Source: a virus | Lineage: Duplodnaviria; Caudoviricetes | DNA: 64,000 nt | Reading direction: 5' to 3' (one strand) | IMG/VR virus record: IMGVR_UViG_3300011008_000012 | Span: 1 to 64,000 of that record | Shown: one piece after another, positions 2,714 through 20,117 of the stretch | Layout of the letters: each line of letters starts with the position of its first letter | Position numbering within the stretch: position 1 is the first letter of the stretch | Notes under the pieces: model-generated | Told to the model about the DNA's origin: nothing | Databases searched by the model: none | What the model saw: only the letters and a program-made list of their open reading frames with translations | Made by a program: the position numbers and the translations under genes

Positions 2714-3655
2714 ATGTATAATGAGGAAATCAAAGAGCGGTTTTTGAATGAATACTGTCCACAGCACAAGGACTACCGCACAACACACGGGCTTTTCAGT
2801 AGGACAGAGCCTGGGGAAATTGCAGTCGGAGCAGATGTTGCGGTGATGACGGTTAATCAGGCTATGCTTGCTATTGATTCTATGGATATGACGGGCATAC
2901 AGATGATTTATAATCTTCGCATAGTAATCAAAGCATATATCGAATGGTGTAAAACCAACGGAATTATGGAGACAAACGACGGGTTTTTGCAGGTTTGTAA
3001 CCCGGATTTGGATATTTCTCCGTCGATTTCAAGGGTTTTATTCCGCGATGAAAACGATCTGATATACTCCATGCGCAAGGTTTGTGCGTTCAATGAAGGG
3101 TATCCGCAGCCTGTAATCATGGCTTTTGCTTGGCTTGGTTTGCAGCAAAAAGAAATCATAGATTTGCGGGAAGCTCATGTCGATCTAAATGTAAGACGGG
3201 TTTATGATGCAGCCGGGAATATAATCGTGGACGGCTTTTCCGATCGAATTGCGGATATTTTGCAGGAATTTGAGGAAACGACCGTAGGCCAGAGGGAAAA
3301 CCATACGACGGTCTACGAGGTTATCAAGGACCGTTCGACGGACGCCTATCTCAAAAGGTTTCTGCCGAGGAACTCCGAGAAATTCGGCGGGGAATATACC
3401 ACAAGTCAGGTGTATTCCGCACTGAATAGGTACAATCTCAAGTATAGAGAGCAGGGTTTTCCATCTCGTCTCACGTTCTCAAACGTCTGGAAATCCGGAC
3501 GATATCATGCTCTATGGGAATGGGAGCAAGTGTCAGGGTTAGACGCATTTAAGTCTGAAAATCAGGGAAAAGTTCTGGAAATCTTCCGAAATTCTGCCAA
3601 TTATGCCAGTATCATCTGGTTTTACAAAGCCTATAAACGGGCATTCAATCTGTAA
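2714..3655 (+). CDS. tyrosine-recombinase-fold protein, SPbeta YopR/MrpR-like repressor (paralog 1)
   Basis: MYNEEIKERFL start, YIEW helix, AWLGL..EIIDL, VWKSG; no intact R-H-R-Y set recognised; clear paralog of 41818-42804. Confidence 0.6.
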   Translation: MYNEEIKERFLNEYCPQHKDYRTTHGLFSRTEPGEIAVGADVAVMTVNQAMLAIDSMDMTGIQMIYNLRIVIKAYIEWCKTNGIMETNDGFLQVCNPDLDISPSISRVLFRDENDLIYSMRKVCAFNEGYPQPVIMAFAWLGLQQKEIIDLREAHVDLNVRRVYDAAGNIIVDGFSDRIADILQEFEETTVGQRENHTTVYEVIKDRSTDAYLKRFLPRNSEKFGGEYTTSQVYSALNRYNLKYREQGFPSRLTFSNVWKSGRYHALWEWEQVSGLDAFKSENQGKVLEIFRNSANYASIIWFYKAYKRAFNL

Positions 3656-5216: not shown

Positions 5217-5399
5217 ATGGCAACGTATACCAATGCGCTGGAAAAGATCACGACAGCGCCCGTCCTGCATGTGGACGGCTCTCCGACGAACTACCGTCCC
5301 GATGCTCACAAGTATTTCTGTGAGCGGTGCTATAAGCACAACGGCGGAATCTGCCCTGATACCGGGAGGAAGGGCAAGAAACAGTTCTGCAACGCATGA
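5217..5399 (+). CDS. small Cys-rich hypothetical protein
   Basis: AAGGAGG RBS; CERC and further Cys; overlaps next start (ATGA). Confidence 0.7.
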   Translation: MATYTNALEKITTAPVLHVDGSPTNYRPDAHKYFCERCYKHNGGICPDTGRKGKKQFCNA

Positions 5400-5833
5400 G
5401 CGCGGGGCAGAGCGTCGCCTTCGAGAGAGTCCGGCGTGTGACCGGGTATCTCGGCACTCTCGATAGGTTCAATGATGCGAAGAAGGCCGAGGAAAAAGAT
5501 CGCGTAAAGCACACGATGACCGGCGACGACGGGTATGTACTGCTCGCCGCCGCTGTCATTGATAGAGCGGTTCAGGATTATGAGGACGCAAAAGACGCAC
5601 TCAAGCGAATCGAAGAAACGGGCAGGGAATTTGTGTCGGTGCACGGCGAAAGGATGTATCGGTTCACAGCTCTTGCCAATCTTGCCGATGTGGATGACTT
5701 CTTCCGGTCGAAACGCGCAGCGGCTCTCATGTCTTTCGATCCGATGAAGCTCTATGACAAGATCAGGGAAAACTATGAGCGGTACGGAAAATGCCAGCCG
5801 CACCGTGAAGGAAACGAGGTGATCCCGGCGTGA
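5396..5833 (+). CDS. protein with N-terminal NrdD-type glycyl-radical tail motif
   Basis: FERVRRVTGYLGTLDRFNDAKKAEEKDRVKH matches the NrdD C-terminal motif. Confidence 0.7.
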   Translation: MSAGQSVAFERVRRVTGYLGTLDRFNDAKKAEEKDRVKHTMTGDDGYVLLAAAVIDRAVQDYEDAKDALKRIEETGREFVSVHGERMYRFTALANLADVDDFFRSKRAAALMSFDPMKLYDKIRENYERYGKCQPHREGNEVIPA

Positions 5834-9594: not shown

Positions 9595-10239
9595 ATGACT
9601 AAGGAGACAATGACGATTCATCAGGCTCTGTGCGAGCTCAAGACTCTCGACTCCCGTATTCTCAGTGCGATCGAGGCAAACAGCTATGTGTTCGCCAACA
9701 AGCACGCCAATACCAAGGTTGGCGGTGTGGAGATCGGCAAGATCTGCGACGAGATCAAGGCCAAGTACGATCAGGCGAACGATCTGATCCGCCGCCGCGA
9801 CGCCATCAAGCGTACTGTCGTGCTGTCGAACGCGGCTACGATGGTGACGATCGACGGCCAGCAGTATACCGTGGCCGAGGCGATTGAGCTCAAGAACCAT
9901 CAGATCCCCATTCTCCAGCGGATTCTCAAGAAGATGCAGATGCAGCTTGAGTATGCGCGGCGTGAGGCCGACCGTTCCAACGGCGATGCTCTGGAGGCTC
10001 GTGCCGACGGGTACATCAAATCCCTGTACGGCGATAAGACCGACCTCAAGAACATGAGCGAGGAAATCCGGAAGACCCGCGAGGAGTTCATCCGGCAGCA
10101 GACGGTCGAGATCGTCGATCCTCTGGATATCACGGCGAGGATGAAGGAGCTGGAGGATCGGATCAACGGGTTCATCGTCAACATTGACTCCGCTCTGTCC
10201 GTGTCCAACGCTCTGACGAGCATCGAAATCGAGTACTAA
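9595..10239 (+). CDS. coiled-coil hypothetical protein (DIP1984-like), directly upstream of a long structured RNA
   Basis: MTIHQALCELK.., TVAEAI, IDSALSVSNA; AAGGAG RBS; strong codon bias. Confidence 0.7.
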   Translation: MTKETMTIHQALCELKTLDSRILSAIEANSYVFANKHANTKVGGVEIGKICDEIKAKYDQANDLIRRRDAIKRTVVLSNAATMVTIDGQQYTVAEAIELKNHQIPILQRILKKMQMQLEYARREADRSNGDALEARADGYIKSLYGDKTDLKNMSEEIRKTREEFIRQQTVEIVDPLDITARMKELEDRINGFIVNIDSALSVSNALTSIEIEY

Positions 10240-10830: not shown

Positions 10831-10934
10831 AATACATAAATTGGAGTGATAAAAATGGACAGCATTCTTTTCGGGTTGATCGTATTCCCGATCATGTTCG
10901 CTGTAATCAACACAGATCACAGGAGGTATCCATA

Positions 10935-11207
10935 ATGGTCAAAGAAGAACTTGTCTCCGAAGTGGCGGCGCAGGCTGGCGTCACCAAGCGCGTGGCGGAG
11001 GCCGCTGTCGAAGCGGTTATTGATACGATCATGGCCGCGGTCGAGGACGGCGAAAGGGTAACGCTCAATAACTTCGGAACCTTTGAGCGGAAGCACAGGA
11101 ATCCGAGGACCGGCAGGGTGCCGGCGACGGGCGAGGCCGTGGATATTCCCGCTCGGGATCTTCCGTGGTTTACGCCGAGTCAGTGTTTTAAGGACAGACT
11201 GACATAA
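10935..11207 (+). CDS. hup: HU family DNA-binding protein
   Basis: KEELVSEVA..GERVTLNNFGTFE..RTGRVPATGE..PWFTPS; AGGAGG RBS. Confidence 0.9.
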   Translation: MVKEELVSEVAAQAGVTKRVAEAAVEAVIDTIMAAVEDGERVTLNNFGTFERKHRNPRTGRVPATGEAVDIPARDLPWFTPSQCFKDRLT

Positions 11208-11850: not shown

Positions 11851-12456
11851 ATGGCTGACGAAGCCATCATGGGACCGGGAGTGCAGGTGTCACTCTGGCC
11901 TAAAGATATCTGGGAGTGGACACAGCGCCCGGATGTGAAGAAGAGGCTGAAATCGGAGATCGTATCTATCGCGGAAAGCGGTCTGACCGGATACGAAATT
12001 TGCGTTTCAGTCGAGTCCAATCTCGTCACGCTGTATGTGTACGACGGCGATAAGAGAGTGTACAACGAGGCGGTCGTATCCACCGGTGACTGCCAGCGCA
12101 CAGCGCAGAAGCTGTTCGACAAGTATCTTCCGAAGGAAGACGACGATGACGAAGACATGGATCGTCTCGATAAGGAAGCGGAAATCGAGGACAGAGAAGA
12201 CTATCTTCACTATGCGTTTATCGATTTTCTGTCCGCCGTCTGCGACTGCGATATGAGTTCGGCGTATGACGCCGGGTATTCATCCGATCTGGACGATGTC
12301 TTCGAGGAGATCCTGCTGAAGCTCGCAACAGAGCATGACATTCCCGTTTATCGCCCGATGTTTATCGTCGAGGAAGAGACAGGCAACGAGGTATACACCG
12401 AGTATCCGTATGAGGATTACGACCTGAGCGGAGGTCCGGCACAGGCCGGAACCTGA
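11851..12456 (+). CDS. acidic hypothetical protein
   Basis: AAGGAGGTG RBS before ATG 11851; Asp/Glu rich. Confidence 0.75.
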   Translation: MADEAIMGPGVQVSLWPKDIWEWTQRPDVKKRLKSEIVSIAESGLTGYEICVSVESNLVTLYVYDGDKRVYNEAVVSTGDCQRTAQKLFDKYLPKEDDDDEDMDRLDKEAEIEDREDYLHYAFIDFLSAVCDCDMSSAYDAGYSSDLDDVFEEILLKLATEHDIPVYRPMFIVEEETGNEVYTEYPYEDYDLSGGPAQAGT

Positions 12457-12520: not shown

Positions 12521-12919
12521 ATGTCCAAAGTCATCATCGCTGGCGACGCGGCCGTCGTCAAGTCCGAACTCACCCTGGAGCAGCTCAAGACCATCAAGCG
12601 CTATCGTCCCCAGGCTCTCGTCCTGAAGGGCGGCGAGAATGGCAAGGAGCCTATCTTCGCCATCGACGTGACCACCGGCACCGGTGAGATCAACGCCTAC
12701 GGCGCGAGCTTCGGTCGTGAGTCCCACGACGAGTCCAAGGTCGCCATGATCACCCTGGTCACCTCCGGCGTGTCCGGCGACGTGAAGGAGGCCATCGCTG
12801 ACAAGCTCGGCGGCGCTCTCATCAAGCTGAACCAGCTTGAGGCCACCCTGCCCGCGGTTCTGGCCGAGATCGAGGCGGAGAAGGCGACCGTCCTCTCCAA
12901 CATCTCCGTCGCGGAGTGA
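12521..12919 (+). CDS. hypothetical protein, first gene of the Ubl cluster
   Basis: 132 aa, AAGGAG RBS, extreme C-ending codon bias. Confidence 0.85.
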   Translation: MSKVIIAGDAAVVKSELTLEQLKTIKRYRPQALVLKGGENGKEPIFAIDVTTGTGEINAYGASFGRESHDESKVAMITLVTSGVSGDVKEAIADKLGGALIKLNQLEATLPAVLAEIEAEKATVLSNISVAE

Positions 12920-13003
12920 TCGGATCGGGGCGGGTTTACCGCCCCTCCAGTCCTAATTCATCAACCAATCAACAATAAAACCTACATAAAGGAGACATCA
13001 AAA

Positions 13004-13234
13004 ATGATCAAAGTCACTGTCGGCAACAACGTCAAGCGCGAGTCCGTCATCGTCAGCCCCAACACCACCCTGCGTTCCGTTCTGGAGAACAACGGCATCG
13101 ACTACACCCGCGGCGTCATGCACCTCGACGGTTCCTCCCTGAACCCCGGCGATCTGGACAAGACCTTCGAGTCCTTCGGCATCACCGAGAAGTGCTTCCT
13201 CCTGAACGTCGTCAAGGCTGACAACGCGGCCTGA
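13004..13234 (+). CDS. ubiquitin-like (beta-grasp) protein
   Basis: 76 aa with Ub-like pattern (MIKVTV..VSPNTTLRSVL..LDG..L.DLDKTFESFGI..LLNVVK); adjacent to E2-like, JAB and ThiF genes; ends KADNAA. Confidence 0.75.
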   Translation: MIKVTVGNNVKRESVIVSPNTTLRSVLENNGIDYTRGVMHLDGSSLNPGDLDKTFESFGITEKCFLLNVVKADNAA

Positions 13235-13299
13235 TAGCAGAAGCAACTCAAGAAAGAGCTAAGCGATAGGCGGGGCCGTAAAGCCCCGCCGTGCTATAT

Positions 13300-13376
13300 G
13301 CCGACGTGGTGCAATCGGAAGACACATCCGGTTTAAACCCGGTAAGTTGAGGGTTCAAATCCCTCCGTCGGTACCA
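13300..13376 (+). tRNA. tRNA with TAA (Leu) anticodon and short variable loop
   Basis: gccgacg/cgtcggt + ACCA; loop tttaaac; T-arm gagggttcaaatccctc. Confidence 0.8.
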
Positions 13377-13406
13377 TCGAGTTTTATAAAAGTGAGGTGT
13401 AAGTAA

Positions 13407-14894
13407 GTGTTCAAGACGCCGATCACATCGACGCCGTTCACAACGGATGCGGCAAACGGATACTTCCAGAACATTCGCGGTCAGGCGTATCAGGGAGACT
13501 ATTCGTTCCTCGCCACCCTGCGTGCGTTTATGGGACAGCGTATCCCGGAGAACGAGTCGATCGAGCTGAGGTTTTCTACCTCGAACATAACAGAAGATCA
13601 TGTCAAAAACAATAGCGCCGATGCTATCATTCGCGCAATCTGCGGCTCGTGGGATGTGACGAGCCATGGCTATCTCCAGATCCACAATCTTGGCAGCCCG
13701 ATCTCCGCGAACAACTTGGCGTGCTATCACTGCCTGCATTCATACTTCGCCGCCACATATCACGGATGGCGGCAGATCGAAGAGATCACCAATCTGTTCC
13801 GAAAGAACTTCAACGTGCTCTGCTATATCAACGCCGAGCAGAAGAGTACGATTCTGTTCGTGGAATCGCTCAACATGAAGCGAATGCACTTCCTGCAGAG
13901 CATAACGCTCGGCATCCTGCCGTGGTATTTCAGCCCGGACAAGGGGTGGTCTGATCTCGATAAGGAGCTGATGCAGTCTTTCAAAGAAACCACGCCGGAT
14001 AAGTACATCGAGTGCATCAATAAGATCGCATCGCAGTACGATTTCGAGACGATCCGCATCAAGACGCTGCTCCGTGGTTTTGAGACGAGGTATGAGCGCA
14101 ATGAAGTGCAGAAGGTCGAGCGCGAAATCGCCAATCTGTATGAAAACATCGCCATATTGAATACAGATATCGGAACAAAAATGCGCATGATCAACGAGAA
14201 AAATATTCGCCTCCTTGGATTGCAGGCAAAGATCGCCGGCTATTCCGACGAGGACTCCGAGCTGATGGAGTATTTTCTGTGCAACCGCCAGCTCGTTATC
14301 GAGGATGTGGTTAACGATACGATCTACTTCTCAGTGAAGACCTATATGGAGTACTTCGACGAGGATGTCGTCAACAAGTATCTCAACAATCACGGCAGTT
14401 TCGTTTATCAAAACGAGCCGAGAGGCTTCACGCTGGATCAGATGGAAAAGCTCCTGCGTGCGGTATTCATCGATCAGTCGATCCGTCTCCGGTTCTGCGC
14501 TGCGTATTGCTTCTCTTTGAACGGGAACGTCGATCCGCAGACAAACCACGATTTCGGACAGGAGTTTCGGCATTATATGCCGAATCCGCATATCAATCGC
14601 TGGCATTGTATGGGGAATTACCTGTCGAAGGTAAACAACCTGCTCAAGGAAAACAACTACATCGCGGCGCTGGAACAGTGTGTCGCGTCTGCCAAGAGCT
14701 TGAACTGGACAGACGGTACGGTGATGGGCACGTTCCTGAAGACGGTATGCGGCAGAGAAAACTACAACAACAAGGCATTCGAGCTTCCTGACGGCCGCGT
14801 AGTGACGCCGATCGAGGCGATCAAGTGGCTGGAGGAACAGGAAAAGGCGAGTACCACAACGGAAAATACAGAAAGTGAGGCGGCAGATGAGTAA
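13407..14894 (+). CDS. coiled-coil protein with C-terminal prokaryotic E2-like domain
   Basis: PNPHINRWHCMG resembles the E2 HPH/HPN...C active-site region; lies between Ubl and JAB genes. Confidence 0.6.
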   Translation: MFKTPITSTPFTTDAANGYFQNIRGQAYQGDYSFLATLRAFMGQRIPENESIELRFSTSNITEDHVKNNSADAIIRAICGSWDVTSHGYLQIHNLGSPISANNLACYHCLHSYFAATYHGWRQIEEITNLFRKNFNVLCYINAEQKSTILFVESLNMKRMHFLQSITLGILPWYFSPDKGWSDLDKELMQSFKETTPDKYIECINKIASQYDFETIRIKTLLRGFETRYERNEVQKVEREIANLYENIAILNTDIGTKMRMINEKNIRLLGLQAKIAGYSDEDSELMEYFLCNRQLVIEDVVNDTIYFSVKTYMEYFDEDVVNKYLNNHGSFVYQNEPRGFTLDQMEKLLRAVFIDQSIRLRFCAAYCFSLNGNVDPQTNHDFGQEFRHYMPNPHINRWHCMGNYLSKVNNLLKENNYIAALEQCVASAKSLNWTDGTVMGTFLKTVCGRENYNNKAFELPDGRVVTPIEAIKWLEEQEKASTTTENTESEAADE

Positions 14895-15819
14895 GATCAT
14901 CAAAATGACGGACGAGTACCGGGAACAGCTCAAGCGTGAATTTGCGGAGGCGATCCTCTCCGTCCGTTGCACGGATGGAAAGATGAGCTTCACAAGAACC
15001 TTCGACGCGATTGATCGGAAGGCAAATCTGTACTTCTCGGAGAAAGCGTGGGAGAAGATGTGGGCGCTTCTTCGTGAGTTCGACAAGGAGGTCGCGTGGC
15101 ACGGCGTCGCGCATCGCGGAGAGGGTGAAGGCGACGACTACTACATCGAGGACATTCTCGTCTACCCCCAGGAAGTGACTGGCGCGACAGTCAACACGGA
15201 TCAGGAGCGCTATCAGGACTGGCTCTACCAGTTCGACGACGATGTGTTCAACAACATTCGTATGCAGGGTCACAGCCATGTGTATATGAATCCGGCTCCT
15301 TCGGGTGTCGATGTCACGCATCAGGAGAAGATCCTGGAGCAGCTCGACGACGACATGTTCTACATCTTCCTGATCTGGAACAAGCGCGGCGAAAAGACGA
15401 TCAAGATCTTCGATCTCCAGAAGAACACGCTGTTTGAGACAGGCGATGTGGTCGTGCATGTGGTCGAAAGCGAAGACGGGATTGCCAAGTTCATCCGCGA
15501 GGCGAAGGAAATGGTCAAGGATCGCGTATACACTGCGCCGACATATAAGGGACCGCCTCCCTCGTCGTCCGTCCCCGCTCCGACGCCGGCAACGTCCGTT
15601 GTCAACAACGTGACGCAGCTCAAGGCTCCGAGCACGCCCCCTGAGAAACCGGCCAACTCCAAAAAGAACAAGAAGGACAAGAAGCGGACCAAGTACGGAG
15701 CCGGGTGGGCTGGCGCGAACGCGAGCGGTCAGACAACGCTCGCCGGGTTTTCTGACGAGGATGAAGATCCGTATGGCCCGTTCGGTTATTCCGACGTATT
15801 CTTCAGGGAGGATAAGTAA
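14887..15819 (+). CDS. JAB/MPN+ metallo-isopeptidase with low-complexity tail
   Basis: KEVAWHG glutamate plus GHSHVYMNPAPSGVD (HxH-x7-S-xx-D). Confidence 0.85.
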   Translation: MSKIIKMTDEYREQLKREFAEAILSVRCTDGKMSFTRTFDAIDRKANLYFSEKAWEKMWALLREFDKEVAWHGVAHRGEGEGDDYYIEDILVYPQEVTGATVNTDQERYQDWLYQFDDDVFNNIRMQGHSHVYMNPAPSGVDVTHQEKILEQLDDDMFYIFLIWNKRGEKTIKIFDLQKNTLFETGDVVVHVVESEDGIAKFIREAKEMVKDRVYTAPTYKGPPPSSSVPAPTPATSVVNNVTQLKAPSTPPEKPANSKKNKKDKKRTKYGAGWAGANASGQTTLAGFSDEDEDPYGPFGYSDVFFREDK

Positions 15820-16490
15820 TGGACTTATCGAAAAGCTACGAGTATTTCAATCCCGATCAGGATGACGCGAGGGTACACATCATCGGATGTGGTTCCGTAG
15901 GCTCGACCGTCGCGGAGAACCTCGCGAGAAGCGGCGTCACAAAGATGACGCTCTGGGATTTTGACACGGTGGAGGCGCACAACATCGTCAATCAGATGTT
16001 CTTCGCCCGCCACATCGGGATGCCGAAGGTCGAAGCGCTGAAGGATATCCTCATGGATATCAACCCGGACATCGTGGACGATCTGGTTCTCCAGCCGGAT
16101 GGTTGGAAGGGCAAGCTCCTGTCCGGGTATATCTTCCTGTGTGTGGACAATATCGATCTGCGCCGGGAGATCGTGGAAAAGCACATGGACTCTACGTTCG
16201 TCAAGGCGATCTTCGACTTCCGCACTCGTCTGGAGGACGCGCAGCACTACGCCGCCGACTGGAACGACGAGAAGATGAAGAAGGATCTGCTCAACTCCAT
16301 GCAGTTCTCTCACGATGAGGCGAAGGAAGAGACGCCGGTGTCCGCCTGCAATGTCACGCTGGGCGTGTGCCCGACGGTTCGCATCATCTGTGCGAGAGGC
16401 GTGGCGAACTTCATGAACTTCATCAATGGCAAGCCTCTGAAGAAGTTGGTGCTCGACGATGCGTTCGGCATGATGTGCGACGCATTCTGA
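15819..16490 (+). CDS. ThiF/E1-like adenylyltransferase
   Basis: IIGCGSVGS, DFDTVEAHNIVNQ, PKVEAL, CVDNIDLR, candidate catalytic Cys in PVSAC. Confidence 0.9.
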   Translation: MDLSKSYEYFNPDQDDARVHIIGCGSVGSTVAENLARSGVTKMTLWDFDTVEAHNIVNQMFFARHIGMPKVEALKDILMDINPDIVDDLVLQPDGWKGKLLSGYIFLCVDNIDLRREIVEKHMDSTFVKAIFDFRTRLEDAQHYAADWNDEKMKKDLLNSMQFSHDEAKEETPVSACNVTLGVCPTVRIICARGVANFMNFINGKPLKKLVLDDAFGMMCDAF

Positions 16491-16512: not shown

Positions 16513-17274
16513 ATGGATAGGAAAATCAAAGACCTGAAGGTCGGCACAAGGCTTCAGTTCGGACGCTACACATGCGATCCCTCGCCGAACGCAGCCGGCG
16601 TGCCGATCATTTGGTTGAAAGCCAGTCCAAATTGCGATTTTATATCGGAATACGCGCTCGATTCGTTGGTTTTTGACGCCCGCGAACGCGGTTCGCCGAT
16701 CAACGATCACAAATGGTACGGCAACAATACATACGAACTGTCCAATATCTATCAGTTCCTCAACAGCGAGGACGCGGTCTGGTTCCATAATATGCACGAG
16801 TACGACGTGCTTCACGGCGACTATGCGAACCGTCGCGGATTTCTTTACGCCTTCGAGCCTTATGAGATCGCGGCAATATCCGGCGGCGTTCAACTGCCGG
16901 AATTCAATGACATCTTTAATGTGTATGGAAGCAATTTTGCTCTGTTCAAGCGGAAGGGCATTCGTCCGCATCCGTCACAAGATTTCCGCAATCGATTCTG
17001 GCGTGAGGGCTATGAGGCATCGTCCTATGTATCATATTGGACTTCTACGCCGAAGGAGGCGTCAACGAGGGTTCATGTGGTAGGCAGAGACGGTTACGGA
17101 TCGTCTGCTGAACCGGCTCATCGCGCTGGTCTTCGTCCAAAATGCCGGATCAGCGGAGATCTGATCGTGGATATCACAGCGGATGGCGTCTACACGTTAA
17201 GAGCTTTCGAGGTCGATGATACAGAGGAAGTATACAGCGACGACGATCTTTTCAGTTTCCTCGGTTTGCGGTGA
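16513..17274 (+). CDS. DUF6273-like protein
   Basis: IKDLKVG..FG, FDARE, YGNNTYELSNIYQFLNS, YWTSTP, GLRP. Confidence 0.65.
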   Translation: MDRKIKDLKVGTRLQFGRYTCDPSPNAAGVPIIWLKASPNCDFISEYALDSLVFDARERGSPINDHKWYGNNTYELSNIYQFLNSEDAVWFHNMHEYDVLHGDYANRRGFLYAFEPYEIAAISGGVQLPEFNDIFNVYGSNFALFKRKGIRPHPSQDFRNRFWREGYEASSYVSYWTSTPKEASTRVHVVGRDGYGSSAEPAHRAGLRPKCRISGDLIVDITADGVYTLRAFEVDDTEEVYSDDDLFSFLGLR

Positions 17275-17626: not shown

Positions 17627-18766
17627 GTGACGTATATAACGGTTATGCAGTCTCCGATGTATCATCAGCTTACATTGGAGGAATTCTTATTTGAGAAGCG
17701 GCGCGGAAATCTGATGATAAACGACAGCACGGCAAATACACGAACATACGCTGTTGAGCATGTCAGCAACAATTTTCTGCGCACGATCAGCGTTCCATAT
17801 CTGATCTCACAGCTCATAAAGTTCAATGAACGGACGGAGTTTCTCCGTCAGCAGCCGCGCAAAGAACTCTATTATGAATTCTATATCCCCAAGAAATCCG
17901 GTGGACTTCGCAGGATCGACGCGCCGTGTGAGGATTTGATGACGGCACTTCGTGATCTGAAACGGATGTTCGAGTCTGATTTCAGGGCGCTGTATCACAC
18001 GTCAGCGTTTGCGTATGTCAAAAAGCGCTGTACGATCGACGCCGTTAAGCGCCATCAGGCCAACGAAAGCAAGTGGTTTGGCAAGCTGGATCTATCAAAT
18101 TTCTTCGGCAACACGACGCTGGAATGGTCGATGCAGATGCTGTCAATGATTTTCCCGTTTTCGGAGGTCATGAAGATCGACCAGGGAAAGGAACAGCTCG
18201 AAAAAGCTGTGGAGCTCGGTTTCTTGAATGGAGGTCTCCCGCAGGGGACTCCGCTCTCTCCGACGCTCACGAACATCCTGATGATCCCCATCGACTATAC
18301 GCTCGCCAATGCGTTCCGGGATTTTCAGAAGCAGCAGTTCGTTTACACAAGGTATTCTGACGATACGATCGTATCGTCGAAGTATGACTTTGATATCCAC
18401 GCTGTTGAACGACTCATCAAGGACGTACATAAGCAATTCAACTCTCCACACGTTTTGAATGAGAAAAAGACGCGGTACGGCTCATCGTCCGGCTCAAACT
18501 GGAATCTCGGTCTGATGCTTACAAGAGACAACGAGATCACCATCGGGCTTCAGGCGCGAAGGCAGTTCCGTGGAATGATCACGGCGTATGTGTCAGATAA
18601 GCAACACGGGATCGAGTGGGATCTCCATGATATCCAAGTTATGGAGGGTCTTCGCAACTACTATCGCAATGTGGAACGCGAGGCGATCGACGATATGGTG
18701 AAGCACATCGGAGAAAAATACAACGCGGATATCGTTGCGATGATCCGAAAGGACTTAAAGCGATAA
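17627..18766 (+). CDS. retron-type reverse transcriptase (YSDD)
   Basis: IPKKSGGLRRIDAP, AFAY..DAVKRH (region X-like), KLDLSNFF, GLPQGTPLSP, YTRYSDD, NLGL (region Y-like); AAGGAGGT RBS, GTG start. Confidence 0.93.
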   Translation: MTYITVMQSPMYHQLTLEEFLFEKRRGNLMINDSTANTRTYAVEHVSNNFLRTISVPYLISQLIKFNERTEFLRQQPRKELYYEFYIPKKSGGLRRIDAPCEDLMTALRDLKRMFESDFRALYHTSAFAYVKKRCTIDAVKRHQANESKWFGKLDLSNFFGNTTLEWSMQMLSMIFPFSEVMKIDQGKEQLEKAVELGFLNGGLPQGTPLSPTLTNILMIPIDYTLANAFRDFQKQQFVYTRYSDDTIVSSKYDFDIHAVERLIKDVHKQFNSPHVLNEKKTRYGSSSGSNWNLGLMLTRDNEITIGLQARRQFRGMITAYVSDKQHGIEWDLHDIQVMEGLRNYYRNVEREAIDDMVKHIGEKYNADIVAMIRKDLKR

Positions 18767-19568: not shown

Positions 19569-20117
19569 ATGACAAGGCAGGAATTTGTCGATGGCGTGAC
19601 TGAATGGTATGAGCTCATGGAGTTCTGCCAGGACTACGGCATTGAAGTGTGTGATGATGTCATTGACGAAGAAGACTATGAAAGCAATGTGGAAGACGAT
19701 ATCTGCGACCGCGACTGCGGCTGGAGCACTCTTCGGGATTGCCTGAACGATCTTCCGGAGGGCGATTACTCGTATTACCACCGCAATGGCTGGCTCGACT
19801 ATGAAGGTCTTGACGAATACGGAGATTTCCGCGCCTATAAGCAGGATGTCCTTGACTGGATGGACCATTACGGCGAATGGGATGAAGAGGAAGAGGATGA
19901 AGAAGACGAGTACGACTGGTACGATGAATTCGTCGGCGGAGAATGTGACGAAGAACCGGAAGATGACGATGAGCCCGTCGTGGAAATCGACTTCGCGTTC
20001 GTGATTTCTTCCGGCCAGGGTCATCTCCAGATGCTTATGGAGGATGCTGTAAAGGCGGATGAAGAGGACGCCGCTCTCGTAGATGAAGCGGCCGACCTTA
20101 TCCTATCACCGGTTTGA
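19569..20117 (+). CDS. highly acidic hypothetical protein
   Basis: GGAGG RBS before ATG 19569; very Asp/Glu rich with many Trp/Tyr. Confidence 0.8.
   Translation: MTRQEFVDGVTEWYELMEFCQDYGIEVCDDVIDEEDYESNVEDDICDRDCGWSTLRDCLNDLPEGDYSYYHRNGWLDYEGLDEYGDFRAYKQDVLDWMDHYGEWDEEEEDEEDEYDWYDEFVGGECDEEPEDDDEPVVEIDFAFVISSGQGHLQMLMEDAVKADEEDAALVDEAADLILSPV

Follow-up and report, generated by a model that had tools for sequence, protein, structure and literature searches.

A cluster of five co-oriented genes in a gut phage

The window analyzed here, a stretch of 64,000 nucleotides (positions 1 to 64,000 of IMG/VR record IMGVR_UViG_3300011008_000012), belongs to a gut phage of roughly 120 kb. Between positions 12521 and 16490 the initial annotation had described five co-oriented genes, all of which are present on the plus strand in the list of open reading frames: p132, encoding an abundant 132-aa partner protein (12521-12919), a 76-aa ubiquitin-like (Ubl) protein referred to as the tag (13004-13234), the E2-like 495-aa protein p495 (13407-14894), a JAB/JAMM metallopeptidase (14887-15819) and a minimal E1 of 223 aa (15819-16490). 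The tRNA reported inside the cluster was identified by ARAGORN as tRNA-Leu(UAA) (13300-13376, plus strand) between the tag and p495 genes. The position directly upstream of the E2-like gene is a conserved slot for tRNAs, holding tRNA-Leu(UAA) in 22 of 33 relatives scanned and another tRNA in 4. No paper describing this phage Ubl/p495/JAB/E1/p132 cassette was found in the literature and, judged by sequence, the cassette appears to be built from unannotated protein families.

The extreme codon bias claimed for the tag and the 132-aa gene was confirmed, with Nc values of 26.0 and 28.4 being the two lowest among the 59 genes of the window (next gene: 38.9) and a GC3 of about 0.9 in both. The p132 gene has a strong AAGGAG ribosome site and the tag gene is likewise preceded by a strong site. 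Folding of the 60 nt after the p132 stop revealed a GC-rich hairpin without a T tail (12927-12945, plus strand); this segment reached -15 kcal/mol or lower in 91% of 46 distinct relatives, compared with 11-19% for control segments. A second GC-rich hairpin lies 3' of the tag gene (13269-13290, plus strand), and the region reached -15 kcal/mol or lower in 96% of 49 distinct relatives (median -25.4). Extreme bias, strong ribosome sites and conserved 3' hairpins are confined to the tag and p132 genes; p495, JAB and E1 are linked by overlapping starts and stops. The JAB start codon, ATG 14887, overlaps the p495 stop by 8 nt, and a single base is shared between the JAB stop and the E1 start. GTG 14875 was rejected as the JAB start, ATG 14887 being conserved.

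A ThiF-type E1 is predicted to bind the tail of the tag

A ThiF/E1 enzyme had been recognized in the initial annotation, and the product of 15819-16490 indeed matched ThiF with an E value of 4e-22. PDB matches to MoeB and UBA5 had E values of 1e-11 to 1e-12 and the best match in PADLOC was to the Cap2 E1-E2 models (E 1e-19), while all scores of the E1 stayed under every family-specific cut-off. In homologue alignments the GxGxxG motif, D47, K70, D110, R115 and C177 are invariant; counting against a conjugation cascade, the Arg of the MoeB 'RQ' ATP motif aligns to an invariant Asn (Asn58). From its sequence, the 223-aa protein carries a solid, single adenylating domain of the ThiF type.

The tag ends in KADNAA and thus, as described before, lacks a terminal Gly. 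Homologue alignments define its C-terminus as an invariant Lys-x-Asp-Asn-Ala (K71, D73, N74 and A75), beyond which the final Ala76 of the tag in the window is an extra residue, and the mature end is probably Ala75. In one relative (L045) the tag terminates in ...KAD. To our knowledge, none of the known Ubl pathways uses a folded tag that ends in Asp-Asn-Ala. A PDB search with the sequence profile of the tag found no Ubl, and its Pfam matches, all sub-threshold, were to the ubiquitin-like families TUG-UBL1 and Cobl and to DUF2604.

When the tag was co-folded with an E1 dimer, an ipSAE of 0.82 was obtained (runs: 0.78, 0.82 and 0.82), whereas the best of three controls reached 0.01; the mark applied is passed by 58 of 80 solved complexes and by 2 of 110 mismatched pairs. 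Since complexes of the MoeB-MoaD type are solved, passing this mark shows likeness to MoeB-MoaD. Partner pLDDT was at least 88 and contact agreement between runs at least 77%. In the model, tag tail residues 69-76 sit in the nucleotide pocket and contact E1 residues 23, 25-28, 107-112, 115 and 134-137, with Ala75 touching residue 27. Resting on this co-fold and the sub-threshold Pfam matches, the tag is predicted to adopt a beta-grasp-type fold.

Invariant residues of the peptidase and the E2-like protein

The HxH..S..D motif noted in the JAB protein is intact (E..HxH-x7-S-xx-D). Numbered from ATG 14887, E68, H129-S-H131, S139 and D142 are invariant in sets of 28 and 55 homologues. The sole PDB match of the family profile was RPN11, at E 0.18 and with the catalytic residues aligned; the PADLOC JAB model was matched at E 0.003, and Pfam Prok-JAB by 6 of 28 family members. 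The protein ends in a disordered, basic and Pro-rich tail.

The p495 family comprises 2274 clusters at 50% identity, and searches with the p495 sequence in Pfam, PHROG, PADLOC, NCBIfam and the PDB gave no match. The full-length model (pLDDT 88.6) consists of an N-terminal alpha/beta domain (residues about 20-190; 13464-13976, plus strand), a 55-residue helix, a UBC/RWD-like domain (14244-14846, plus strand) and an acidic tail. The N-terminal domain showed weak but recurring resemblance to MogA/MoaB/Cnx1G folds (Z 4.2-5.3 over 110-130 aligned residues), and H93, C139 and H161 are invariant in an alignment of 47 sequences (A1), each at least 45% identical to p495 of the window.

The PNPHINRWHC segment pointed out before is present in p495 and belongs to the C-terminal domain (model pLDDT 92.6, pTM 0.87). 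No variation was seen at N393, H395 or C401 across 49 sequences with identities down to 33%, and this invariant Asn-x-His-x5-Cys appears to stand at the place of HPN...Cys in E2 enzymes. N393 and C401 are 8 residues apart, the spacing of Asn77 and Cys85 in UbcH5. When 48,161 chains were compared with this domain in VIA-align, only 136 reached Z >= 2, with UBC/RWD/UEV folds making up at least 40 of the best 50, as was also seen in a repeat run. These folds, at Z scores of 3.2-5.3 which the tool warns may reflect merely a common arrangement, included UBC12, Ubc9, Cap2 and one chain from a bacterial complex of E1, E2 and Ubl. Foldseek searches with the p495 models found no E2, and neither Prok-E2 nor UQ_con was matched by the cassette proteins in Pfam. 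Weak structural matches in VIA-align (Z <= 5.3), but not Foldseek, support a UBC/RWD-like assignment of the predicted domain, in line with the E2 fold suggested for this gene.

Tag and E1 might instead form a ThiS/MoaD-like sulfur carrier, working by acyl-adenylate and thiocarboxylate, or activate some other small molecule, with the JAB peptidase only maturing the carrier and p495 not being an E2. ThiF and MoeB as the best family-level matches of the E1, its single short ThiF-like domain and the faint similarity of the p495 N-domain to MogA/MoaB of the molybdenum cofactor pathway would agree with such a role, as would archaeal SAMP and Thermus TtuB, in which sulfur transfer is combined with JAMM enzymes. 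Nevertheless, we regard it as improbable: the tag has no Gly-Gly end, the E1 scores all fall short of the family-specific cut-offs, the invariant Cys of p495 lies within a UBC/RWD-like domain, and a rhodanese, cysteine desulfurase, ThiG, MoaE or TtuA-type partner was absent from the cluster in Pfam and NCBIfam searches.

The tag is fused to p132 in many relatives

p132 has more than 1000 homologues, among which no Pfam domain was detected, and it is present in 49 of 50 full loci. Tag and p132 are encoded by two genes in most phages and as a single Ubl-p132 polyprotein in many relatives. Longer relatives of the tag amounted to 251 matches, and in about 117 of the 120 listed Ala75 of the tag is joined directly to Ala2 of p132, so that ...KxDNA is followed by A-x-[IV]-x-[IV]-x-G with zero linker. 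Direct fusions also occur in L059 and in L057, the latter carrying two copies of the tag. The 132-aa gene had been treated as a mere neighbour of the Ubl gene; its adjacency and codon bias stood, but its status as a neighbour only did not, since the natural fusions place p132 within the system, as a candidate partner or acceptor. This role of p132 is new in the present analysis.

In the alignments p132 has no invariant Lys or Cys. Lys3 is conserved solely in the unfused form, a pattern that could be due to efficient translation and not to a role as acceptor site. p132 is the first candidate acceptor, with host or rival-phage proteins, the purely conjectural targets put forward in the initial annotation, being equally conceivable.

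The equal and very high expression signals of tag and p132, their frequent fusion and the missing invariant Lys or Cys could also be explained by an abundant non-covalent complex, for instance a regulator or a mimic soaking up a host factor, with the peptidase just splitting the polyprotein and E1 and p495 acting elsewhere. This appears hardly likely to us, as the invariant tail of the tag docks in the E1 active site in the co-fold and the catalytic residues of E1, p495 and JAB are all retained in fused-gene phages (alignments A2, A5 and A6, including L057 and/or L059). Moreover, the fusion order blocks the C-terminus of the tag, which is sensible only if this end is later freed or if the tag-p132 link is itself the product.

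The cassette and a retron-type reverse transcriptase form one conserved island

The gene set was found in 63 IMG/VR phage loci and 17 MAG loci, a recurrence which shows that the grouping is not due to chance. Outside the cluster, at 17627-18766 on the plus strand, lies a retron-type reverse transcriptase (RT; PADLOC RT_II-A, E 4e-41), co-oriented and strictly co-conserved with the cassette, with which it may, as suggested earlier, be co-transcribed. Its co-occurrence in relatives, raised in the initial annotation, was seen in 62 of 63 loci and in all 50 with full flanks. Tag, p495, JAB and E1 also occur in 50 of 50 full loci, whereas outer flank genes are shared by 0-1 of 50, so that the block from partner to E1 together with the RT is the only part conserved over 50 phage loci. 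Median identity was 87% for the tag, 69% for E1 and 45-46% for p495 and JAB, and the cassette is kept down to 30% p495 identity. Cassette and RT are one conserved island, core to the phage lineage rather than swappable cargo.

The phage looks temperate: an integrase-like gene is located at 2714-3655 of the window, and the relative L065 lies within a 359-kb bacterial contig. Cassette and retron could therefore be a bacterial-type system riding a temperate phage, which would protect the lysogen in a Bil-like manner through tags placed on the proteins of further invading phages. Defence is a known function of retrons, and the bacterial Ubl/E1/E2/JAB systems Bil and type II CBASS are anti-phage, with the same suggested for Bub by its genomic context. 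We consider prophage-borne defence unlikely: defence cargo is typically swappable, whereas this island is present in every full locus amid non-shared neighbours. It is also retained at such low p495 identity, and extreme codon bias together with polyprotein or duplicated tag genes points to bulk output, which is unusual in sensor-type defence.

A predicted phage-encoded conjugation cascade

We favor, with some reserve, the prediction that the cluster at 12521-16490 is a complete phage-encoded ubiquitin-like conjugation cascade. The Ubl/E2-like/JAB/E1 cascade with a non-Gly Ubl, as previously proposed, is supported computationally by the fold of the E1, the way in which the tag docks to it, an intact JAMM site and the UBC/RWD-like fold with its invariant Cys, and also by the expression signals, the tag-p132 fusions and the co-conservation of the cassette genes. 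Tag (75/76 aa, beta-grasp-type) and p132 would be made abundantly and in roughly equal amounts. We infer that the JAMM peptidase trims the tag to ...Lys-x-Asp-Asn-Ala75, removing Ala76 in the window and p132 in fused forms. The homodimeric minimal E1 would then bind the tag, thread its tail into the nucleotide pocket, adenylate Ala75 and form a thioester, probably at the invariant Cys177, from which the tag would be handed to p495, at the invariant Cys401 of its UBC/RWD-like domain. The acceptor may be selected by the long helix and the N-terminal domain of this protein, and we therefore propose p495 as a combined E2/E3. The peptidase may also reverse conjugates.

Comparison with known systems

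The cassette resembles BilABCD (type I/II Bil, operon classes 6d/6C of Iyer et al. 2006, PMC1779556; PMC10557695; preprint Hoer et al., 10.1101/2023.09.04.556158) in encoding Ubl, E2-like protein, JAB and E1 as four separate genes without an E3, the E2 being thought to pick targets and the DUB trimming residues past the reactive end. However, the Gly at the end of Bil tags is universally conserved, while the phage tag ends in an invariant Asp-Asn-Ala; the Bil E1 is multidomain (IAD-AAD-CYS) and the phage E1 a single 223-aa domain. In Bil E2 the Cys precedes His (CEHH in type II), whereas p495 has Asn-x-His before Cys and, unlike Bil E2, holds its E2-like domain in the C-terminal third of its 495 residues. 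Bil resides in bacterial defence islands, while the phage cassette is lineage-core and tied to the retron RT and p132.

With type II CBASS Cap2/Cap3 (10.1101/2022.03.31.486616; PMC10097602) it shares a homodimeric ThiF-type E1 domain, to which its best PADLOC match belongs, a substrate C-terminus that can be Ala (CdnD ...GRFA) and a JAB antagonist (Cap3). Cap2, in which E2 and E1 are fused, acts on a disordered CD-NTase tail; in the phage, E1 and the E2-like protein are two separate polypeptides, a small folded tag is the substrate and a CD-NTase is absent from the cluster.

As in Bub (6E/DUF6527), where the tag is made as a Ubl-E2 fusion and released by its own JAB peptidase (PMC11601596), the phage tag may be freed by cleavage, and both have highly diverged families missed by standard annotation. 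Bub E1 and E2 lack a catalytic Cys and use Tyr/Ser oxyesters, whereas phage E1 and p495 keep an invariant Cys; the DUF6527 serine protease of Bub was not found with the phage cassette, and the fusion partner is E2 in Bub and p132 in the phage. A further parallel is offered by eukaryotic ubiquitin precursor genes (polyubiquitin, Ub-L40 and Ub-S27a fusions) and by archaeal SAMP1-MoaE with HvJAMM1 (PMC4443979), in that the tag is joined head-to-tail, with zero linker, to a partner that is abundant, tandem tag genes occur (two in L057) and a JAMM enzyme could free the tag.

Both an Ala terminus and precursor trimming have precedent: the E. cloacae CD-NTase, which bears out the earlier statement that Cap2 substrates can end in Ala, terminates in ...GRFA and is AMP-linked in Cap2 (10.1101/2022.03.31.486616), BilC takes off residues beyond the reactive Gly (PMC10557695) and BubCD cuts the Ubl-E2 fusion (PMC11601596).

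Gene layout of the cassette

The initial annotation had described a co-oriented operon of a ubiquitin-like protein (Ubl), an E2-like protein, a JAB peptidase and an E1 enzyme, with a tRNA inside it and extreme codon bias in the Ubl gene and its 132-aa neighbor, and ORF calling together with codon usage over the 59 genes of the window recovered this arrangement as described. All genes lie on the plus strand. The gene of the 132-aa partner (p132, 12521-12919) and that of the 76-aa Ubl, referred to here as the tag (13004-13234), precede a tRNA-Leu(UAA) (13300-13376), the E2-like 495-aa protein p495 (13407-14894), the JAB peptidase (14887-15819) and the 223-aa E1 (15819-16490). A DUF6273 protein (16513-17274) is encoded between E1 and the retron-type reverse transcriptase (RT, 17627-18766). 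A conserved ATG at 14887 is the JAB start and gives an 8-nt overlap with the p495 stop, and from the ORF coordinates the JAB stop and the E1 start overlap by one base. These overlapping starts and stops make translational coupling of p495, JAB and E1 probable.

The slot before p495 holds a tRNA, usually tRNA-Leu(UAA), in about 26 of 33 loci; in some relatives tRNA-Met, tRNA-Tyr or tRNA-Leu(CAA) is found at this place, and in others none. The copy in the window measures 77 nt and the same-slot copy in relatives usually 83-88 nt, and the variable arm of the window tRNA may be shortened. The wider neighborhood of the cassette is no structural module; it contains numerous tRNAs together with genes for an integrase-like, an RNA-binding and an HU-like protein. 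Further upstream, the N-terminal residues 10-41 of a 145-aa protein (5396-5833) match the C-terminal end of the NrdD-like anaerobic ribonucleotide reductase (phrog_487, E 4e-6), and judged by this match the protein may be of the glycyl-radical 'spare part' type.

Conservation across related phages

By tblastn the same gene set was detected in 63 IMG/VR phage contigs, mostly of 53-133 kb with a few shorter fragments, and in 17 MAG contigs from Clostridia (Oscillospiraceae, Acutalibacteraceae and others), in one case inside a contig of 359 kb. Megablast of the cluster against GenBank phages returned no match. The annotation of one relative in Acutalibacter muris suggests that a host in culture may be accessible.

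Presence counts were taken from the 50 loci with full 8-kb flanks. The tag, p495, JAB, E1 and the RT were present in every one of them, and p132 was present in 49. An acidic 201-aa protein (11851-12456; 47/50), an HU-like DNA-binding protein (10932-11207; 43/50) and a second acidic protein (19569-20117; 42/50) were also frequent, the two acidic proteins belonging to no known family. Most other genes within 8 kb were found in none or one of the 50 loci, with the exception of a 'tail fibre' ORF (9595-10239) present in 28. Median identity was highest for the tag (87%), followed by E1 (69%), p132 and RT (58% each) and p495 and JAB (45-46%). The island, i.e. the cassette together with the RT, is a conserved core inside a variable region. 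This speaks for a functional link with the retron and against the cassette being exchangeable defence cargo. The HU-like protein and the two very acidic proteins may be part of the same functional island, and the acidic proteins could be DNA mimics.

The DUF6273 protein, which also matches a Hoc-like decoration PHROG, is probably not obligatory to the cassette, as it was found in only 32 of the 50 loci. In one relative three extra genes lie between JAB and E1 (L045:10451-12754), encoding an acidic protein and unannotated ORFs of 193 and 251 aa that resemble, by eye only, a Uma2-type endonuclease and a protein of the Bro-N/KilA type. Insertions into the operon are thus tolerated.

E1 and the tag

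The ThiF/E1 assignment of the initial annotation held up in profile searches. E1 matched PF00899 (ThiF) with an E-value of 4e-22 (78.8 bits, cut-off 28.1), MoeB and UBA5 among the PDB sequences with E-values of 1e-11 to 1e-12, and the Cap2 models of PADLOC with 1e-19. Its sequence thus marks the 223-aa protein as a clear ThiF-type adenylation domain. The superfamily features are all present (Rossmann-type ThiF domain, GxGxxG, ATP-binding Asp and Lys, Mg-binding Asp), and among 25-47 homologues G23xG25xxG28, D47, K70, D110, R115 and Cys177 were invariant. Invariant Asn58 aligns with the Arg of the MoeB 'RQ' motif. None of the named subfamilies (ThiF, MoeB, UbaA, TcdA, Cap2) accommodates E1, as all NCBIfam matches, which span residues 16-120 only, stayed below their curated cut-offs; the best was ThiF PRK08644 with 86.9 bits against a cut-off of 159.

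The C-terminus of the tag, which the initial annotation had reported to lack a terminal Gly, is strictly conserved: Lys71-x-Asp73-Asn74-Ala75 was invariant in an alignment of 26 sequences, and Ala75 is the last residue in most relatives, while a few, including the window, carry one extra Ala. Neither a terminal Gly nor a Gly-Gly is found, and no Gly occurs among the last 16 residues. A precedent for a terminal Ala is the E. cloacae CD-NTase, which ends ...GRFA and was seen AMP-linked in Cap2 (10.1101/2022.03.31.486616). In one relative the tag ORF terminates ...KAD, without Asn-Ala (L045:7152-7373). Searches of the tag against Pfam gave sub-threshold matches throughout, to DUF2604 in 8 of 26 members (best E 0.0016) and to the ubiquitin-like TUG-UBL1 and Cobl, the remaining ones being scattered over single members. 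The tag profile retrieved no Ubl from the PDB sequences, and in the ESM Atlas the tag matched its own family and one weak ThiS lead at 0.86.

To characterize the E1-tag pair, two E1 chains and the tag were co-folded with a separate alignment per chain and three controls. An ipSAE of 0.82 was obtained (runs 0.78, 0.82 and 0.82), compared with 0.01 for the best of the three controls; the mark applied is one that 58 of 80 solved complexes attain, as do 2 of 110 mismatched pairs. The partners, the tag included, had a pLDDT of at least 88, and at least 77% of the contacts were common to the runs. In this model of the complex the tag docks in a Ubl-like manner, and the beta-grasp fold given for it in the initial annotation is a candidate assignment. 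Its residues 69-76 contact the E1 P-loop (23, 25-28), the D110 region (107-112), R115 and residues 134-137, with Ala75 touching E1 residue 27, so that the C-terminal tail of the tag is predicted to sit in the adenylation pocket. As MoeB-MoaD-type complexes have already been solved, this result is to be read as a predicted likeness to a Ubl-E1 pair and not as binding.

The Asn-Ala end was also considered, and rejected, as a sign of MccB-like peptide-nucleotide chemistry, since a folded protein of high conservation is the substrate and the detectable similarity of E1, MccB included, is confined to the Rossmann region (residues ~15-120).

A probable E2-like fold in p495

As a single-sequence query, p495 was named by none of Pfam, PHROG, PADLOC, NCBIfam and the PDB sequences, and the Pfam E2 families in particular did not match it. 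The full model (pLDDT 88.6) consists of an alpha/beta N-domain, a 55-residue helix and a C-domain. Since this helix swamped VIA-align when the full model was used, the C-domain was folded separately (pLDDT 92.6, pTM 0.87) and aligned exhaustively to 48,161 chains, of which 136 reached Z ≥ 2, families being assigned from entry titles. UBC, RWD or UEV folds made up at least 40 of the top 50, at Z values of only 3.2-5.3, and a repeat run agreed. Among the matches were enzyme-type entries (UBC12, UBE2F, Ubc9, Ubc13, UbcH5B, Cap2 and a chain of a bacterial E1-E2-Ubl complex) and RWD entries (GCN2, Knl1, Spc24/25). The E2-like assignment of the initial annotation is thereby supported in part: VIA-align favors it, whereas Foldseek against the PDB, with the full model as well as with the C-domain, gave nothing at E 0.001 or better. 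Because the Z values are low, a UBC/RWD-like fold of the C-domain is graded as likely rather than proven.

The modelled C-domain runs in the order helix, two strands, helical insert, two strands, loop and three helices, which agrees with the UBC-type succession of a helix, a four-strand meander and helices. The motif Pro-Asn393-Pro-His395-x5-Cys401 is invariant and lies in the loop between strand 4 and the next helix, and Asn393, His395 and Cys401 remain unchanged down to 33% identity. Asn393 and Cys401 are 8 residues apart, as are their counterparts in UbcH5. In the model the motif appears to occupy the place of the E2 HPN...Cys.

The N-domain (residues ~20-190; 13464-13976), in which His93, Cys139 and His161 are invariant, gave weak but repeated matches to MogA/MoaB/Cnx1G molybdopterin-binding folds (Z 4.2-5.3), a likeness that we treat as a lead only. 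By hhalign the two domains of p495 showed no relation to each other.

Clustered at 50% identity, the E2-like domain family comprises 2274 clusters, of which the top 150 have the same architecture. In BFVD the full model retrieved no named family; its sole match was A0A8S5PR93 of Siphoviridae sp. ct96x5, an uncharacterised protein of 420 aa (Foldseek E 2e-19). As this match has 15% identity, the p495 family appears from the models to extend well past the reach of sequence searches.

JAB peptidase and Ubl-p132 fusions

The intact HxH..S..D motif attributed to JAB proved to be invariant: the complete zinc-site pattern E ... HxH-x7-S-xx-D (E68, H129, H131, S139, D142; His-Ser-His in HxH) was conserved in sets of 28 and 55 homologues. 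HMM scores were weak, with an E-value of 0.003 for the PADLOC JAB model and a best E-value of 0.013 for Prok-JAB, which matched 6 of 28 members, and the single sequence found no match among the PDB sequences. With the family profile RPN11 was the sole PDB match, with the catalytic residues aligned.

p132 belongs to the system. The tag and p132 genes are the two most codon-biased of the window's 59 (Nc 26.0 and 28.4, the next being 38.9), both have a GC3 of ~0.9 and a strong AAGGAG ribosome site, and each is followed by a GC hairpin without a T tail (12927-12945 for p132, 13269-13290 for the tag). Among relatives, a folding energy of -15 kcal/mol or lower was obtained for 91% after p132 and for 96% after the tag, compared with 11-19% for control segments. 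These hairpins could stabilise the messages or attenuate read-through, and thereby set the tag and p132 high relative to the enzymes.

In two related phage loci, L057 and L059, tag and p132 form a single ORF, in L057 as two tandem copies and in L059 as a protein of 206 aa (L059:4945-5565). These adjoining fusion genes (L057:6119-7480; 205 and 210 aa) recall a polyubiquitin-type gene dosage. Searching for longer tag relatives gave 251 proteins, and fusions of 201-210 aa account for about 117 of the 120 listed. The junction always reads ...Lys-x-Asp-Asn-Ala followed by Ala-x-[Ile/Val]-x-[Ile/Val]-x-Gly, i.e. tag residue 75 is joined to p132 residue 2 with zero linker. The tag comes first in the fused form, the reverse of the two-gene order, and its C-terminus is blocked. 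A tree of 271 p132 sequences requires at least 5 changes between the fused and separate states, and phages with the fused gene retain E1, p495 and JAB with every catalytic residue.

On the conservative reading the fusion would be a precursor cut by JAB, for which ubiquitin fusion genes, trimming by BilC (PMC10557695) and cleavage of a Ubl-E2 fusion by BubCD (PMC11601596) are precedents. With a cut after Ala75, the mature products would be identical to those of the two separate genes. A bolder reading, which we consider improbable, takes the joined form as the natural product: Ala75 of the tag would be linked to the p132 N-terminus in a 1:1 conjugate, as in Atg12-Atg5 or linear ubiquitination, the zero-linker fusions would be its hard-wired form, and the island, including the RT and template RNAs, would be a new phage-owned retron type with a Ubl-cascade accessory module that is used by the phage during infection, e.g. 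against host defences. Lys3 of p132 is conserved where p132 is encoded separately and varies in the fusions; little weight was given to this difference, since the fusions are the more diverse set as a whole and a Met-Ala-Lys start also favors translation.

The C-terminus of p132 as a second E1 substrate was rejected, as this end varies (ITVAQ, ITVM, ISVQ, extensions). A family search for p132 gave more than 1000 homologues and no annotation, and the ESM Atlas offered a poor model (pLDDT 0.37) with no usable match. Since hhalign showed no relation of p132 to the tag or to either p495 domain, p132 cannot be recognised as a further Ubl or as an E2.

Significance and comparison with known systems

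Taken together, the reading of the cassette as a putative Ubl cascade is well supported by computation. The prokaryotic Ubl conjugation systems characterised so far (Bil, CBASS, Bub) are weapons of bacteria against phages. In the present case the Ubl machinery belongs to the core gene set of an uncultured and very large gut phage lineage, as reflected by the 2274 E2-like clusters, and it is distinguished by unnamed families, an Ala-ended tag, a dedicated abundant tag partner and strict linkage to a retron-type RT. If the chemistry is true, bacterial viruses themselves would use protein tagging, the terminal-glycine rule for folded Ubl tags would be widened, and a testable handle on the role of phage-borne retrons would be gained. 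Our literature searches yielded neither a description of such a cascade encoded by a phage nor one of a retron associated with Ubl, ThiF or JAB genes.

Sulfur-carrier systems of the ThiS/MoaD type combine a Gly-Gly carrier with a sulfurtransferase or synthase partner (ThiG, MoaE, rhodanese), whereas the tag has no Gly-Gly end and none of these partner families was detected among the cluster genes by Pfam or NCBIfam. With type II CBASS (Cap2/Cap3) the cassette shares the E1 type and, as predicted for the tag, the tolerance of an Ala end. However, Cap2 is an E2-E1 fusion that acts on a CD-NTase, while E1 and the E2-like protein are separate genes here. In PADLOC, p132, the tag and p495 gave no match and the peptidase matched JAB models alone, and for E1 the 25 matches listed of 32 were exclusively Cap2 'E1-E2' models; therefore no other gene of the cluster matched a CBASS component. 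Bub resembles the cassette in having a fused tag, which in Bub is released by a JAB peptidase, but its E1 and E2 lack a catalytic Cys (PMC11601596), whereas C177 of E1 and C401 of p495 are invariant, and it includes a DUF6527 serine protease (PMC11601596), to which no cluster gene gave a Pfam match. Bil is the closest in its parts list and differs in three defining features (PMC10557695, PMC11601596): its Ubl ends in Gly and not in Ala, its E1 is a multidomain IAD-AAD-CYS protein rather than one 223-aa domain, and its E2 has a conserved His after the Cys, whereas in p495 the conserved His precedes it. We regard the cassette as a new variant of the prokaryotic Ubl conjugation systems.
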